64,000 nt of DNA from Octopus vulgaris (taxonomy: Eukaryota), in assembly GCA_951406725.2 (NCBI GenBank), contig OX597830.1, positions 74,524,001-74,588,000 of the forward strand, read 5' to 3'. The notes below the pieces were generated by a model. That model had not been told where the DNA came from and did no database searches. It was given only the letters and a program-made list of their open reading frames with translations. The position numbers and the translations under genes are program-made. This document shows, one piece after another, positions 1,689 through 56,160 of the stretch (its first letter is position 1; each line of letters opens with the position of its first letter).

Positions 1689-2044
1689 ATACGTATATAT
1701 ATAAATATATATATATACATATATTTATGTTTATGTTTATATTCATACATGTATATATATATATATAATGATATTCATATACATGTGTAAGTTTATATAT
1801 TATATGCATGTATGTATATGTATGTATATATATGTGTGTGTATATACCTATACATATATATATATATATTTATGTTTATATATTATATATGTGAATATAT
1901 GTGAATGTATATGTATATATATATGTGTGTATGTGTATACATATCTGCATAGATACATACGTACAAAGCTGTATGTATACACGCACACACATACACACAC
2001 ACATACACACACACACACATATATATATATATATGGATGTGCAA

Positions 2045-2220
2045 GTATATGCATCCCTTTTCCTTTCTTCCTTGATCTTATTGCCTTGTTATCTGGAAGA
2101 GTGATTCTCTCAGATTTTACCAATTTTCTTCTCTTTATTACAAGCATGGCACATTTGTCAATACCAAACAGTTTCCTATTATCTCTGCTGAAAATTCTAA
2201 CCGACTACATCCAAAGTTCA
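2045..2220 (-). mobile_element. R4/Dong-clade non-LTR retrotransposon RT fragment
   Basis: Minus strand reads VRIFSRDNRKLFGIDKCAMLVIKRRKLVKSERITLPDNKAIRS, matching the FSxDIxMxFGxDKCA...GKLVKSEGIxLPD motif just upstream of YKYLG. Confidence 0.75.
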
Positions 2221-2459
2221 GCTCCATCTCCGCATCAAAAGTCCAGCACAACTAAAGTTTCAGATAATACGTGTACATTAGGTTTTTCGATGATATCTCC
2301 TCTTTCTCTTTCTTGATCACGTGGGATCAAAACCTAGCAAATGACTGAAGGGATATTGAATCTAAATTTTACATAGTGAATTTTCGATTCACGACACTTC
2401 AACTCAACGGGATTTCAAGTCCCAAAGATGTTTGTAACCATTATCATTAGTATTATTAA

Positions 2460-2730
2460 GAAAAGAAGGCGACGTTCAATATGCTTAGCAGCGACGTTCA
2501 AAGTGCTTAGCAGCGACGTTCAAAATGCTTAGCATCGACGCTCAAAATGCTTGGCATGCCGTTCAAGTTGCTTAGCAGCATTTTGTCCGTCTTTACGTTT
2601 TGAGTTGCCGAGGTCGACTTTGCCTTCCATATTTTTGATGTCGATAATATAATTACCAGTTATACACTGGGATCGATGTGATCGACTTACCAACTTACCC
2701 AAAACTGCTGACCTTGTAAGAAAACTTGTA
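2460..2730 (+). mobile_element. Degenerate tRNA-derived SINE (family B here) with about five tandem copies of a ~22-bp head segment
   Basis: Repeated gcgacgttcaaaatgcttagca, followed by gccgaggtcgactttgccttcca...accagtt..cactgggatcgatgtgatcgact, shared with the copies at 47171 and 56259. Confidence 0.7.
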
Positions 2731-2741
2731 ACTTGAAAAAA

Positions 2742-3280
2742 TTATTTTTTGCTCTTTTTCAGAATAGAGTGAAGTTTTTTCGGTCTTTCATGTTTTTCAA
2801 CAAGTTTTAGCGGTCCAATCGTTGGTTGTTTAAAGGTATTTGGCCAGTCTAATTGTGGTGGTTTGTACGTAAGTTCAAGCTGGGTAAAGCCTCGACCTCC
2901 ATGAGCTTTGGAAAGGTAAAGATGATCAACGTCAGCCTTTGGAAGATGCATCTTATTACAAGTCAGTAGCTTGCGGATTTTTCTATGAATTTTCATTATT
3001 TCACTGGTATTCCATTTAAGCACATTGAAGCTATAAAGAACAACTGGGACTGCTAAGGAATTTATGGCTAACACCTTGTAATATGCATTCAGCTCACACT
3101 TCAGGACTGCTCGAATTCTTCTATAACATTCCTTCCTAACCTTCTCCTTCATGCATGCATGCTGGATGCCAGAGCCTTCATTTATTCCTAGGTATTTAAA
3201 GATTTGTTCCTGCTCAAGTTCCTTTATTACTGTTTCGACATCTAATTCAATTGAACTTGACTTTACCAATTTCCCTTTTA
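2742..3280 (-). mobile_element. R4/Dong-clade non-LTR retrotransposon, RT C-terminal/thumb fragment
   Basis: ORF 2742-3338 contains FKYLGINE...VLKCELNA..KVLAINSLAVPVVLYSF...KIRKLLT..MHLPKADVDHLYLSKAHGGRGF. Its 5' end abuts (TAA)n. Confidence 0.9.
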
Positions 3281-3320
3281 TTATTATCATTACTATTATT
3301 ATTATTATTATTATTATTAT

Positions 3321-3450
3321 TAGTTTTTCTTCTTTCAAGTTGTTTCTATTTCTTGACAGGAAACTTCCCGACTCCTAGGGCAGTGAACTCAATGTATACA
3401 GTGACAGGCCTTTGAAATAAGCACAGCAGATTGCTCATTTTCATAATAAA
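3321..3450 (-). mobile_element. Possible very short 3'-UTR remnant of a Dong-like element between triplet tracts
   Basis: About 130 bp of unique sequence that ends on the minus strand in ...gaaagaagaaaaact followed directly by (AAT)n. Confidence 0.3.
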
Positions 3451-3720
<270 letters not shown>

Positions 3721-3874
3721 ATAAAGCAGCGAGCTGACAGAACAGTTAGTGAAACGGCAAAAATCCAGTTTGTCGATGAAATAATGTATCAATGAGATAC
3801 TACACTTAATAATCGGTTAATCCTCTGACATCGAAATTCTGGCTTTATGCTTAAACTAGACATTTTCATAAATT

Positions 3875-4330
3875 GGCAGTGAGCTAGTAGAATCGTTAGA
3901 GCGTTGAAGAAAAAAGCGCTTTGGGAATTTTGTTCCAGCATTGTGAGTTCAAATCCCATCCGAGGCGAACTTTCTGATTTTTCCTTTTACGGCTGATAAA
4001 ATTGTGTCCCACTCAGGTTCTTGGGTAGATGGTATCCACAAATACCCTTCCTACAAAATTTCTGGCCATATGCTTAAACTATAAACTAATATCATTATTT
4101 CTATTTTTACGGAAGCAGAAGATGCTGGCAGAATCATTAAACTGTCGAACAAAATGCTTTGTGAATTTAGTTCTTATCACTACGTTTACTTTTCAGATTC
4201 TGTTAATATCATTTTTACCATTCATTGTCATATCATCGATAAAGTAAAATGCGAATCTATTTATTGGGTCGGTGGTATCGACTAATATCTGCCTTGAAAA
4301 CAGTTACATTTGTATGTAAATCCTAAACCA
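3875..4330 (+). mobile_element. Two adjacent, highly degenerate family-B SINE copies (about 3875-4090 and 4115-4330)
   Basis: Heads ggcagtgagctagtagaatcgttag..gagttcaaatcc and gatgctggcagaatcattaa. Confidence 0.55.
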
Positions 4331-5775: not shown

Positions 5776-6169
5776 TTGGTTTAAACGACAGACAAAATTT
5801 CGTGTGAAAGGACGGCTGGATTGTAAAAAAAAATAATTCAAATGCCTGTGTTTAGGAGCGTTACAATTACATTAACAAATTATAACGGACAAAATAATTA
5901 AGTAAATATCATATACAACTATCGAAATATATTATTATATAACTCAAATAATATTAATCCAAATTCATTTAGTTCGAAGACAGTCTTTGGCATTTATAAT
6001 AGCATACGACAACAATGTATAAGTATGTAAATTAAGTATCAGGGTCTTATTTAATTTCGAGACGGTAATAAAGCGTGTAAATAAATATAAATGATAATAT
6101 AGTAATATATTGTTGATATAAAACAACATTTCTCTTTTATTTAAAGTTATTGATATAAAAAAAAATTGT

Positions 6170-6326
6170 GTGGCTGTGTCGTAAGTAGCTTGCTTACCAG
6201 CCACATGGTTCCGGGTTCAGTCCCACTACGTGACACCTTGAGCAAGTGCCTTCTACTATAGCCTCGGGCCGAGCAAATACTTGTGAATGGATTCGGTAGA
6301 CAGAAACTGAAAGAAGCCTGTCGTAT
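6170..6326 (+). mobile_element. tRNA-derived SINE family A, 5' half
   Basis: Head tggctgtg..taagtagcttgcttacc, B box ggttcagtccc, ends ...gaaagaagcctgtcg running into (TA)n. Confidence 0.85.
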
Positions 6327-6331
6327 ATATG

Positions 6332-6368
<37 letters not shown>

Positions 6369-6681
6369 ATTCATACATATGTGTGTGTAGATGTATATGT
6401 ATATAACAAGTCAGTTGGAGCAGTACTAGATAACCCATTCGTCTGTTTCTATCAATGTCTCTCTCTCCCTCTCTCTCAATCTATCCATCTATTTATGTAT
6501 CTATCTGTCTGTCTGTCTATCTATGTATCTATCTATCTGTCTGTCTATCTATCTATCTATATGTATGTGCGTATACACATATTTATATGCAGAGAGTGAG
6601 AGAGATAGCTTAACAAATATATGCACAAAGGCGATGTGAGACTTATATACGTACACACATATGTACCTGCATATATGTACA

Positions 6682-28129: not shown

Positions 28130-28183
28130 CATTATTATTATTATTATTACTGAATTTCAGGCAAGAAACATATTCCAGATATA

Positions 28184-28348
28184 GGCGCAGGAGTGGCTGT
28201 GTGGTAAGTAGCTTGCTAACCAACCACATGGTTCCGGGATCAGTCCCACTGCGTGGCATCTTGGGCAAGTGTCTTCTGCTATAGCCCCGGGCCAACCAAT
28301 GCCTTGTGAGTGGATTTGGTAGACGGAAACTGAAAGAAGCCTGTCGTA

Positions 28349-28387
<39 letters not shown>

Positions 28388-28620
28388 ATGTGTGTGTATG
28401 TGTTTGTGTGTCTGTGTTTGTCCCCCTAGCATTGCTTGACAACCGATGCTGGTATGTTTACGTCCCCGTCACTTAGCGGTTCGGCAAAAGAAACCGATAG
28501 AATAAGTACTGGGCTTACAAAGAATAAGTCCCGGGGTCGATTTGCTCGACTAAAGGCGGTGCTCCAGCATGGCCGCAGTCAAATGACTGAAACAAGTAAA
28601 AGAGTAAAAGAGTAAGAGAG
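28184..28620 (+). mobile_element. Full-length SINE family A with an internal (TA)/(TG) tract and a (GTAAAAGA)n tail
   Basis: tRNA-like head and tail ggcggtgctccagcatggccgcagtcaaatgactgaaac. Nearly identical to the copies at 32901 and 55759. Confidence 0.9.
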
Positions 28621-32900: not shown

Positions 32901-33313
32901 TCTTTTACTCTTTTACTCTTTTACTTGTTTCAGTCATTTGACTGCGGCCATGCTGGAGCACCGCCTTTAATCGAGCAACTCGACCCAGGGACGTATTCTT
33001 TTTGTAAGCCCAGTACTTGTTCTATCGGTCTCTTTTGCCGAACTGCTAAGTAACGGGGACATAAACACACCAGCATCGGTTGTCAAGCAATGCTAGGGGG
33101 ACAAACACAGACACACAAACAAACACACATATACATATATACATATATACGACAGGCTTCTTTCAGTTTCCGTCTACCAAATCCACTCACAAGGCATTGG
33201 TCTGCCCGGGGCTATAGCAGAAGACACTTACCCAAGATGCCACGCAGTGGGACTGAACCTGGAACCATGTGGTTGGTTAGCAAGCTACTTACCACACAGC
33301 CACTCCTGCGCCT
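32901..33313 (-). mobile_element. Full-length SINE family A
   Basis: Reverse complement of the 28184 copy, with a (tcttttac)n tail. Confidence 0.9.
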
Positions 33314-33323
33314 ATATATATTT

Positions 33324-35160: not shown

Positions 35161-35727
35161 CACTAATTGAGATTTTTCACATCCATAATTTTAGTTAGTA
35201 GTTATTTACAGTATATGTTCCAGTCCTACAAGTGTTTCAACTGCAGTGACTACCCAATGTTGGATATGCAAACCATGGTCGGTGCAGTTTCCTCATAGTC
35301 CGTCATGCATTATATATGACTTCAACAGTTTCAAATTCTGACCTCCTAATTAACCTCTGCATTACTATATGTGTGGTGTGGCTGAAAAAATACCATCCGC
35401 TTTGCTTGCACCACCAAAGCACAAAGGAAGAGTATGCGGTTGCTTAAGAACATCTTTTTTACTGAAGTGGATTAGTTCAAATTATTCTCATTTAACCGTT
35501 TTTGTTCTCTTGTAGCCTATCGGGTAATAGAGAGCGGATGCGGGTTGAGAAGCTACCCTCGTGTTGATCTTCAGAAGCTTAGAGTCAACCGCGAAAATTC
35601 TAATGTGGTTATGTTTAATGAAATCAATGAAGTCATAAAGCATAGCGGTATTGTGGGACACCAATGATGTCCCTAATCCTTCCCCAGTTATCTATCAACC
35701 AAGTGGTAATACTTAGTTTCGCACCAT

Positions 35728-35871
35728 CAATGATAAGATTGAGAGTTTTCCATATTGGTGGTACCCGCAAAAATAAACGGGTATACATATATTAATAGAT
35801 ATATTGATATATGTATACCCGTTTATTTTTGCGGGTACCACCAATATGGAAAACTCTCAATCTTATCATTG
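35728..35871. repeat. Near-perfect 70-bp-stem palindrome with a 4-nt loop
   Basis: 35728-35797 pairs with 35802-35871, with one T-G mismatch. Confidence 0.95.
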
Positions 35872-36034
35872 GTGTGTATATACATATACATAGCTGCTCT
35901 TTTCAAGTGAGTCGAACGACCTTCTCAGGGTCATTCCTTAATTATTTTTGGATATACAATATACGTATATGTATACATATATATGTATATATCTATCTGT
36001 CTGCCTCTGTATATGAGTTCATGTATATATATAC

Positions 36035-43079: not shown

Positions 43080-43581
43080 TGATAGATAGATAGATAGTTG
43101 GATAGATAGATACACCAGTTCATATCTATATCTATATATATATGAATTCAAACGTATACACATGAATGTGTCCATGTTTAAGTAAAAGTCGGAAGCACAC
43201 GTACGCCCACGCACCTATGACTATGTATGTGGAAGTATTTGTGTGTAAGCATCTTTATATGTGTATATATGCTTCTATCTATATATGTGTATACGTGCTT
43301 CTGTGTGGTTGTGTACGCAAACGGTCTTTAAGCCCACGTGTTCACATCTATCTTTTATATTATTTTAGGTTACTGGAGTGCGCCCAAGCTGGAGCAATCT
43401 CTTCATGGCCTTATTGGAACGTAATCAAACCCAGTTCTTAGTCGTTATTTTTTAAAAACCTGTATATTTATTCCAGCTGTACCTTTTGGCGGACACCTAA
43501 GTTGGGTTGACATTTGCAATATACCAACGGTTGTCGAAATGTGGTGGGGGGGAAAAACACCATCACGAAGTTTCAAACACG

Positions 43582-43662
<81 letters not shown>

Positions 43663-43689
43663 AAGGGTGAAAAGGAACACACGAGTTGA

Positions 43690-43973
43690 TATATATGAAA
43701 AAACAAGTCAAAAATAGAAAATGCTAAAATAATTTTATAGTGAACATTTCAGACCTCCGACACACAAGTGCAAACAAGGGAGTCAGAGAAAGGCAGAATG
43801 CCACTTAAATCTGAACACTACTATAGAAATATTCTTTTAAAAAAACTTTTCTTCTAATTTTTCTAAATTTAATTATTTAATCGTTACAGTTGAAAAGGTC
43901 TCAAAATGACCGAAACCGGTACTGAAATGTTCACTATAAAATTATTTTAGCATTTTCTATTTTTGACTTGTTT

Positions 43974-43985
<12 letters not shown>
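43690..43985 (+). mobile_element. ~295-bp (TA)n-flanked mini-element with a perfect ~60-bp inverted repeat and a hammerhead
   Basis: 43694-43752 is the exact reverse complement of 43922-43980. Confidence 0.75.
43887..43924 (+). ncRNA. Minimal hammerhead ribozyme with a U3-A8 core variant
   Basis: cag TTGAAAA ggtc-tcaaaat-gacc GAAA ccg GTA ctg. Palindromic accggt stem III; predicted cleavage after 43921. Confidence 0.65.
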
Positions 43986-44026
<41 letters not shown>

Positions 44027-44040
44027 TATATTTTTTTTCT

Positions 44041-45324: not shown

Positions 45325-45912
45325 CACAAATCGGTGTTTAAGAAGGTCGCTTTGCAACTGCCTGGTTCGGGTTCACTCTCGCTACAAGAAATCTTGGGCA
45401 AGTGTCTACTACGGCCCCGGTGCGACTAATGTCTTGTGAATGAATGGGGTCGACATATATATCTATGTGTGTCGATCTTTATCTCTTTGTTTGTGTCCCA
45501 GCACCACTTGACACCGGTGTTGCTTTGTTTAAATCTCCGTAAGTTAGCGGTCTGGCAAATTGATAGATTACTGAACTGAACAAAAAATAATATTCAAATC
45601 GATTAGTTCGACTAAAATCATTACAAGAAATCTTGGGCAAGTGTCTACTACGGCCCCGGTGCGACTAATGTCTTGTGAATGAATGGGGTCGACATATATA
45701 TCTATGTGTGTCGATCTTTATCTCTTTGTTTGTGTCCCAGCACCACTTGACACCGGTGTTGCTTTGTTTAAATCTCCGTAAGTTAGCGGTCTGGCAAATT
45801 GATAGATTACTGAACTGAACAAAAAATAATATTCAAATCGATTAGTTCGACTAAAATCATTAAAGCAGTGTCTTAGCAAGGCTGTAGTCCAATGACTGAA
45901 ACAAGTAAAAGA
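45325..45912 (+). mobile_element. Old SINE family A containing an exact 239-bp tandem duplication
   Basis: 45383-45621 appears identical to 45622-45860. Tail ccaatgactgaaacaagtaaaaga. Confidence 0.8.
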
Positions 45913-49745: not shown

Positions 49746-50474
49746 TACATATACCTATATACATATATGCCCTCAGCTGCATATATACGTTTGTGTATAT
49801 ATATTCATATACAGATCTCTGCGTATACCTATAAACACACTACATGCATACATAAATAGATAAACGCATAAAATATATGCAGCTCTGGAAATATAAGTTA
49901 TATTTATAAATGTATAAGTGTATGTGAGCTTACGTGGGTGTGCTTACGCGTGTCCATTGTCGCGTGCGTGCCGAGTGAAGTGTGTCTGCATTTGTATGGT
50001 TGTATTTGTGTGAGTGTATTTCTGTTTATAAATAAAAAATGAGAAGAAAATGAAACGATGGTATTTTTTCCATGTATACCACGTCTAGTCGTACAGACAC
50101 CGTACCTGGCGCCTGTAACAGAGACAAAACCGCAAATAAGTATCAGCTGTATATGACCAGTCTATAACTTGTACAGTTATATAATTATTTGTAACTTCAC
50201 TTAAAATAATTAGGATCTTTCAAAAATTTCGATAAGCCCCAAAATATTAATATACGTGAGCGCGTTAGTGTGTGTGTGTATGTAGGTAAATATCATCAAA
50301 AAAAAAAAAAAAAATCAGGGCTCATTAGCCCACAGAATTCTGGAGCAATGTTGTTTCAACATATTGCGTGTCGTCAGTCAGAAGTGACCGGGCCTTTGAG
50401 CCTAAGCCGCCCCTCGATTTGTTTATACTTTCAGAGAACAAATTGTTTGTTCACGAGTGTTTCTTTTGGCCCAC

Positions 50475-50868
50475 TTTACACTTTTACACTTTTACTTGTT
50501 TCAGTCATTTGACTGTGGCCATGCTGGAGCACCGCCTTTTGTCGAGCGAATCGATCCCAGGACTTATTCTTTGTAAGTCTAGTACTTATTCTATCGGTCT
50601 TTTTTGCCGAACCACTAAGTTACGCGGACGTAAACACACCAACATTGGTTGTCATGCGATGCTGGGGGAACGAACACAGACTCACAAACATATACACACA
50701 CATACATATATACGACGGGCTTCTTTCATTTTCCCTCTATCAAATCCACTCACAAGGCTTTGATCGGCCCGCTCACAAGACTCGCTCTAGGTGCCACGCA
50801 GTAGGATTGAAGCCGGAACTATGTGGTTCGTAAGCAATCTACTTACCACACAGTCACTTCTACGCCTA
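50475..50868 (-). mobile_element. SINE family A, diverged, near full length
   Basis: cttttacttgtttcagtcatttgactgtggccatgctggagcaccgcc...acttaccacacag. Confidence 0.85.
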
Positions 50869-55758: not shown

Positions 55759-55761
<3 letters not shown>

Positions 55762-55912
55762 GCTGTGTGGTAAGTAGCTTGCTAACCAACCACATGGTTC
55801 CGGGTTCAGTCCCACTGCGTGGCATCTTGGGCAAGTGTCTTCTGCTATAGCCCCGGGCCGACCAATGCCTTGTGAGTGGATTTGGTAGACGGAAACTGAA
55901 AGAAGCCCGTCG

Positions 55913-55943
<31 letters not shown>

Positions 55944-56160
55944 ATGTGTGTTTGTTTGTCCCCCTAGCATTGCTTGACAACCGATGCTGGTGTGTTTACG
56001 TCCCCGTCACTTAGCGGTTCGGCAAAAGAGACCGATAGAATAAGTGCTGGGCTTACAAGGAATAAGTCCCGGGGTCGATTTGCTCGACTAAAAGGCGGTG
56101 CTCCAGCATGGCCGCAGTCAAATGACTGAAACAAGTAAAAGAATAAAAGAATAAAGAAAA
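55759..56160 (+). mobile_element. Near full-length, young SINE family A
   Basis: Almost identical to the 28184 copy. Confidence 0.9.

Follow-up and report, generated by a model that had tools for sequence, protein, structure and literature searches.

Head-to-head Penelope-like element ends in Octopus vulgaris and an excess of family junctions at a predicted U3-A8 hammerhead cut

A short insert in the genome of Octopus vulgaris consists of two 5'-truncated ends of a Penelope-like element (PLE), joined head to head within a (TA)n repeat. It lies in a stretch of 64,000 nucleotides that we analysed as a whole (the window). The right arm of the insert includes a complete predicted hammerhead, and the left arm starts at the base that follows the predicted hammerhead cut, or one base further. 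Counted over the family, 5' junctions step up at this same cut. We put the probability at roughly 0.6 that the left arm ends at +1, the first base past the predicted cut, since reverse transcriptase (RT) ran off a hammerhead-cut RNA. Judged from the genomic copies, the excess of junctions at the cut likely records RNA that was self-cleaved inside the animal.

Positions in the element are given relative to the predicted cut, window position 43922 being +1, 43921 being -1 and 43753 being -169. The insert extends from 43655 to 43985 (Table 1). Its inverted arms (43689-43752 and 43922-43985) are 100% complementary over 64 nt, the outer 7-8 nt of which are TA repeat, and complementarity stops at 43922. 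A preliminary description of this DNA had reported a perfect inverted copy that breaks exactly at the cut. The copy is indeed perfect, at 64 nt; its start is either +1 or +2, because the G at 43752, the base shared at the join, fits both arms. This G also agrees with the family base at -170, which directly precedes the right arm; in addition, the join is spanned by a gapped G(T)ACC near-match. Of the unit bounds proposed earlier, 43690-43985, the right end stands, and the left arm extends as far as 43655, its last 34 nt being a tail; the (TA)n flanks are seen on both sides, as described. Both arms are 100% identical to the full-length copy at locus L041, the left arm over 98 nt of its 5' pseudo-LTR and the right arm over 227 nt, in agreement with the earlier assignment to a Penelope-type minimal hammerhead in an inverted partial pseudo-LTR. 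The window carries one hammerhead of this family, with its inverted partial arm; the rest of the PLE is found nowhere else in the 64-kb window, and the insert locus contains no tandem array of short hammerhead monomers. Self-primed fold-back was rejected as the origin of the window copy: each arm holds sequence absent from the other, and a simple self-primed copy is thereby ruled out. Elsewhere in the window we observed a perfect 241-nt tandem duplication (45383-45862), a near-perfect palindrome of 150 nt (35725-35874, 96%) and five copies of a dispersed repeat of ~430 bp at 80-93% identity (28179-28619, 32901-33317, 50474-50868, 55759-56156 and 6169-6370).

Table 1. Features of the insert and its flanks (window coordinates).
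Feature	Position	Strand	Remarks
Left flank	43580..43654	.	(CA)n, then (TA)n target microsatellite
Left inverted arm	43655..43752	-	element +1 (or +2) to +98; predicted cut to outer 'tail' 3' end site
34-nt 'tail' (+65..+98)	43655..43688	-	left arm only
Head-to-head join	43752	.	single base common to both arms (overlap -1)
Right arm	43752..43985	+	element -170/-169 to +57..+64; 3' UTR/pseudo-LTR including complete hammerhead
Possible spliceosomal 3' splice site	43848..43889	+	branch-like CTAAT, pyrimidine-rich tract, CAG; by appearance only
Minimal type I hammerhead, predicted	43887..43924	+	U3-A8 core, palindromic stem III; predicted cut 43921/43922
Stem I strands	43887-43889 / 43922-43924		CAG / CTG
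Possible stem I extension	43882-43885 / 43926-43929		
Core	43890-43896		TTGAAAA
Stem II	43897-43900 / 43908-43911		GGTC / GACC
GAAA	43912-43915		
Palindrome	43915-43920		ACCGGT
Cleavage triplet	43919-43921		GTA
Right flank	43986..44030	.	(TA)n; target-site duplication indistinguishable

Every element of the hammerhead layout proposed earlier was located within 43887-43924. Present are a YUGANRA core, GAAA, an NUH triplet, a 3-8 pair and paired stems I and II, as in minimal type I hammerheads. The match to the Rfam HH9 model is weak (19.7 bits, E 0.16, against a gathering score of 52), and the fold of the region (-9.8 kcal/mol, z -0.5 to -1.2) is no stabler than shuffles. Because neither the Rfam score nor the fold is significant, we rely for the hammerhead call on the layout and on its place in a Penelope pseudo-LTR. 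TTGAAAA proved to be family-wide, with U3 in 77 of 79 aligned arms and A8 likewise in 77 of 79, and the extended stem I is kept in both subfamilies. The exact motif dominates a motif scan of the fetched loci with 328 identical matches, which come from overlapping loci and hence give no copy number. When two copies are folded as a dimer, the lowest-energy duplex spans the cut site and is not a double hammerhead. That the ribozyme is active is something we infer, and a single join such as that in the window cannot demonstrate it.

A search for C3 versions yielded 11 scattered C3-A8 copies of the family and no C3-G8 sister family with the same stem II. It also yielded one unrelated C3-G8 hammerhead (L418, G000:C5:114462926-114462962; n=1) that shares the CAG/CTG stem, the palindrome and GTA, with a different, paired stem II. 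This canonical hammerhead is isolated and its stem I measures 5 bp; no homology to the PLE was detected within 1.5 kb of it. In one older copy (L181) an A-U pair closes stem II; the family is too young for much variation. The putative 3' splice site of Table 1 falls on the 5' strand of stem I, which splicing would alter. The same overlap of splice site and stem I has been reported for D. virilis Penelope (PMC4209133, available in part). Contigs from four presumed-RNA runs, which cover most of the element and by their nature cannot reveal RNA ends, have no joint across the possible intron among those listed.

The parent of the insert is, on the evidence of its sequence, a young, protein-coding, endonuclease-positive PLE of ~4.4 kb. 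The genome (2.8 Gb) was searched, as had been proposed, here with the 226 nt from 43753; this returned 651 candidate matches, and among the 44 of these that were listed, 33 are full length at top score and shown as 100%. Exact matches to two anchors number 889 and 1105 genome-wide, giving at least 1105 arms; the true number is higher, because of 92 arms checked only 37 contain the second anchor. Between loci, identity of 97-99% extends over as much as 3.5 kb. The translation of L035 matches RVT_1 at E 1e-8, above the curated cut-off, and C-terminal to the RT it matches GIY-YIG at E 3.6e-4 (21.2 bits, slightly below the cut-off of 22.6), with a CX4CxxC linker, recognised by eye, ahead of the endonuclease. 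Upstream lies ORF1, with a length of 410-411 aa; its frame is intact in 17 of the 30 copies examined. In L041, ORF1 (L041:4086-5399, minus strand) overlaps the RT-EN frame (1861-4149, minus strand); ORF1 has no Pfam match and the RT-EN frame no obvious start codon, and a programmed frameshift between the two is possible. L041 is a partial tandem in which the 3' end is repeated ahead of ORF1 as a pseudo-LTR. Pseudo-LTR-ORF junctions of this kind number 56, with units spaced 4.4 kb apart on C2 and C9. By its linker the element would be of Neptune/Nematis type, two clades that the linker does not separate, and its assignment as a PLE stands on domains and structure rather than on an RT phylogeny. 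As far as can be told it is a new Penelope family, its newness being judged apart from Repbase and Dfam.

Several other loci deserve mention. Adjoining a copy of the first family, a 703-aa open RT frame (L044:7688-9799, minus strand) belongs to a second, related-looking Penelope-like family. At G000:C10:63476787-63477071 the tail-ORF junction occurs three times at 131 bp spacing; this short tandem repeats the region where the element starts and might be retrozyme-like. Sense-strand clustered A-to-G changes were seen in L054 (G000:C6 near 110675400; 13 of 14 mismatches) and in L002/L031 (G000:C31 near 7339600; 22 of 36 mismatches in L002). In the presumed-RNA run X13 a loose end has G in place of the A run of the ribozyme core. 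L054 and L002/L031 may be retrocopies of ADAR-hyperedited RNA.

The 3' ends of the family fall at two fixed sites, +57..+64 and +98, one per arm. The fetched loci, a sample picked by patterns and enriched in short copies, contain 488 distinct arms, of which 267 end at +64, 168 end at +97/+98 and 27 continue into the ORF. The tail is present on exactly one arm in 109 of 120 head-to-head pairs, as it is in the window insert. Having one end of each kind per pair fits two internal RT start sites and extension on two strands. Both arms came from the same subfamily in all 83 classifiable pairs, an observation left out as evidence because the subfamilies may differ in age; the partner arms themselves vary freely among head-to-head pairs.

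To map the 5' ends, we searched for arms that match an anchor and diverge from the family at set upstream positions, and called junctions by script in the fetched loci. Around the ribozyme, a complete set (-10..+27) gave 71 matches, which after removal of 8 continuing copies, 2 anchor-edge cases and 2 internal rearrangements left 59 junctions. A wider set (-32..+27) gave 122 matches, of which 100 were listed; 104 distinct matches lie in fetched loci, including some in later contigs, and a few indel-type rows outside the fetched loci were judged by eye. The union of both sets comprises 83 junctions after 4 were dropped. Upstream, 99 junctions were analysed among 100 listed of 189 matches at -166..-120, and 91 of 92 fetched among 287 matches at -187..-163. 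The survey therefore covers 127 positions, -187..-120 and -32..+27. As a null model we used real flanks with the same filter and the same caller, so that calling bias is included in the expectation.

In the complete set, six junctions fall at +1 where 1.1 are expected (p 9e-4), 12 at +1/+2 where 3.2 are expected (p 7e-5) and 35 at +1..+10 where 15.3 are expected (p 7e-8), whereas -10..-3 holds 4 against 14 expected (n=59 throughout). The step across the cut is 35 junctions at +1..+10 versus 6 at -10..-1 (p 3e-7; n=59); these binomial p-values overstate certainty, because the junctions of the family are clumped. Counting one junction per locus gave the same outcome (n=50). In the 83-junction union +1 is the top position within -32..+27, with 8 arms from 7 loci, and no pile-up was found at stem II in the near-ribozyme survey. 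Both arms begin at +1 in L057, and both at -1 in L170. The excess is small, about 25 arms among 1105 (~2-3%). Among partner-only arms of upstream-selected arms, 2 of 18 begin at +1..+10 against ~1.2 expected, too few, and counted by eye. None of 30 ORF-continuing copies, examined out of 56, starts at +1, where only ~1 would be expected; the template RNA of these long copies was therefore uncut, or had been rejoined, at this position. Three loci, L060, L124 and L177, have small internal deletions (12, 4 and 6 nt) that begin at the predicted cut or extend across it, possibly through imprecise rejoining.

Locus L057 had been considered as two ligated ribozyme ends. This idea was rejected: the 60-nt spacer between its two +1-starting arms is a foreign insert, an internal piece of another repeat family, in an orientation that does not end at a cut site. 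Its source, a further young repeat family (L090-L103, for example G000:C5:124047804; 431 candidates), often shows inverted arms, and the spacer suggests a template jump.

Over all surveyed positions the 5' ends are non-random and form two zones with fairly sharp upstream edges, of which the larger starts at about -179 and the smaller at +1. Rough scaled densities per position are 1.6 at -187..-180, 19.6 at -179..-170, 9.0 at -169..-163, 12.8 at -162..-153 and 2.4 at -152..-120, and near the cut 1.3 at -32..-11, 1.2 at -10..-3, 14.9 at +1/+2, 7.2 at +3..+10 and 2.9 at +11..+27. Thus the expectation that breakpoints pile up at GTA|CTG holds in part: there is an excess at the cut, and the main hot spot lies at -179..-153 (equivalent to window 43743-43769), with sub-peaks near -173 and -156. 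After scaling, +1 and +2 rank only 11th-13th of the 127 positions, and +6 (7 junctions) is equally high. The window insert has one arm from each zone, its right-arm start at -170/-169 lying within the main hot spot.

The upstream zone (about -176) is likely where transcription from an internal pseudo-LTR promoter begins. Such a promoter is known in D. virilis Penelope (PMC2377424, available in part). None of the 30 ORF-continuing copies, 9 of which extend past the 1.5 kb fetched, starts at -179..-163, and this speaks against a full-length template RNA that begins at -176. A cap signature in the form of an extra G at the -176 peak was looked for by eye and not supported (2-3 of 34 TA-flanked junctions).

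These observations suggest how the insert may have formed. By analogy with the system described in PMC11167929 (available in part), the RT-endonuclease, probably as a dimer, would nick both strands of the (TA)n target. Reverse transcription would then start internally at two sites, +98 and about +57..+64, giving two cDNAs, each extended to the 5' end of its RNA or to within a few bases of it. For the right arm this end, about -170, would likely be a transcript start in the pseudo-LTR; for the left arm, at +1, it would be a hammerhead-cleaved RNA. The two cDNA ends would finally be joined head to head through a one-base overlap. By extension, we hold it at even odds that the 5' junctions of the whole family are a fossil map of RNA ends, with one peak from the transcript start (~-176) and one from the cut. 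A bolder version would assign +1 stubs to linear cut RNA and -176 stubs to uncut, newly started RNA, and would derive the long partial tandems that avoid both peaks (0/30) from religated circles or read-through multimers.

An alternative is that RT paused on uncut RNA, either within the extended stem I or where two RNAs pair around CGGUACUG, and so produced the +1..+10 excess. The zone does cover the 3' strand of the extended stem I, with a mean helix 3'-strand probability of 0.60 in copy A and 0.50 in copy B (excluding copy B upstream of -160, where its inverted partner distorts the fold), and the extended stem is present in both subfamilies. The width of the peak, 10 nt rather than a single base, and the read-through of the cut site in all 30 long copies also agree with pausing. 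Yet in copy A pairing does not predict where junctions lie: stem II (-14..-11, probability 0.66) and the helices at -152..-120 (0.49) are junction-poor, while the densest zone, -179..-170, is unpaired. The fold as a whole has little stability (-9.8 kcal/mol, z -0.5), and the edge sits at a cut defined a priori, with +1 as the top local position. We therefore consider pausing unlikely. Quite unlikely, too, is that short symmetry and microhomology (GTAC/ACCGGT, TGAA..TTCA, TA) set the joins, the window join being a chance neighbour of the cut. Such effects exist: the zone past the cut includes a small hairpin, TGAA..TTCA (+2..+12), the joins at +2 in L128, L178 and L188 are of hairpin type, TCGA at -166 is a symmetry hot spot (10 of 99 junctions), the +6 peak comes mostly from TA-flank matching (simple TA-flanked truncations fall at +1 in 1 of 13 cases and at +6 in 4), and the window join itself has its one-base overlap and near-match. 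However, the step persists when short-partner joins, hairpins and most TA flanks are removed, the hairpin label used in this filter also catching many TA flanks (17 versus 3; p 5e-4, n=30). Extra or foreign bases, rather than symmetry, make the join in five of the 8 arms at +1 (L052, L055, both arms of L057, L169), the ACCGGT palindrome accounts for only one fold-back locus (L067), and the bias of the caller is contained in the null.

The preliminary description had regarded the 295-bp unit as a member of a non-autonomous, retrozyme-like family, which would spread as such. Pseudo-LTR-only copies that start at -179..-153 are very common (287 and 189 matches), and since no ORF-continuing copy of the 30 starts at -179..-163, some short copies may derive from short RNAs. 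For the window unit, by contrast, a separate family is largely refuted and very improbable: the sequence forms the 3' end of an element that encodes proteins, its arms being identical to those of the ORF-bearing L041, its two-arm junction context occurs once among 8 matches, partner arms differ freely from pair to pair, and the locus is without tandem monomers. Run-off from a hammerhead-cut RNA remains our preferred reading of the left arm.

The element type, the U3-A8 core, the inverted arms, the tail and the TA targeting are already known. New here, as far as our literature search goes, is the step in genomic junctions at the hammerhead cut; in the literature searched, which was not exhaustive, we found no Penelope junctions mapped to it. 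More than 1000 near-identical arms in a young family make junction positions countable. If the reading is true, it gives genomic evidence of germline cleavage by a U3-A8 minimal Penelope hammerhead whose cut RNA still serves as template, names a U3-A8 family for direct testing, and offers a sequence-only assay of ribozyme activity for any genome rich in such elements.

The systems compared here come from sources available in part. EN+ PLEs of the Neptune and Nematis clades have an RT with a C-terminal GIY-YIG and a CX2-5CxxC linker (PMC8557442). The octopus element resembles them in its RT followed by GIY-YIG, its CX4CxxC linker, its pseudo-LTR with a hammerhead and its partial tandems, and also in the inverted 5'-truncated copy with a 30-40 bp tail at one end and (TA)n targets; unlike the present survey, the account in the accessible part of PMC8557442 does not chart where 5' junctions lie relative to the ribozyme cut. 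The one-sided tail was already known from that source and from PMC3846280. Cercyon PLEs of Schistosoma carry U3-A8 in minimal hammerheads (PMC4209133) and share with the octopus family the U3-A8 core, there as a covariation, the minimal type I fold, the palindromic stem III region and opposite-strand pairs, there 100-700 bp apart and ascribed to truncated PLEs. The octopus hammerhead differs in its 4-bp stem II, the lack of a bulge after A9 and the triplet GUA, and the accessible part of that paper gives no in vivo cleavage evidence. Penelope of Adineta vaga likewise has head-to-head inverted pseudo-LTRs, an optional tail and microhomology joins; unlike the window arms, its inverted pseudo-LTRs are explained by self-priming at palindromes (PMC3846280). 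Animal non-LTR retrozymes, which are tandem arrays of short hammerhead monomers (bioRxiv 10.64898/2026.07.22.740005), have in common with the insert a type I hammerhead, a PLE pseudo-LTR origin and a protein-free unit, whereas the insert is solitary and inverted, and its sequence is that of the end of a coding element. A parallel in mechanism is Poseidon PAc of the anole (PMC11167929), with two internal RT start sites bounding the tail, AT-rich targets, nicking and extension of both strands and a predicted dimeric protein. The core of PAc is C3-G8 and its cut is protein-assisted, its ribozyme mutants left insertion in vitro unaffected, and none of its RNA-seq reads began or ended at the cut; in the octopus family, by comparison, the genomic junctions step at the cut.
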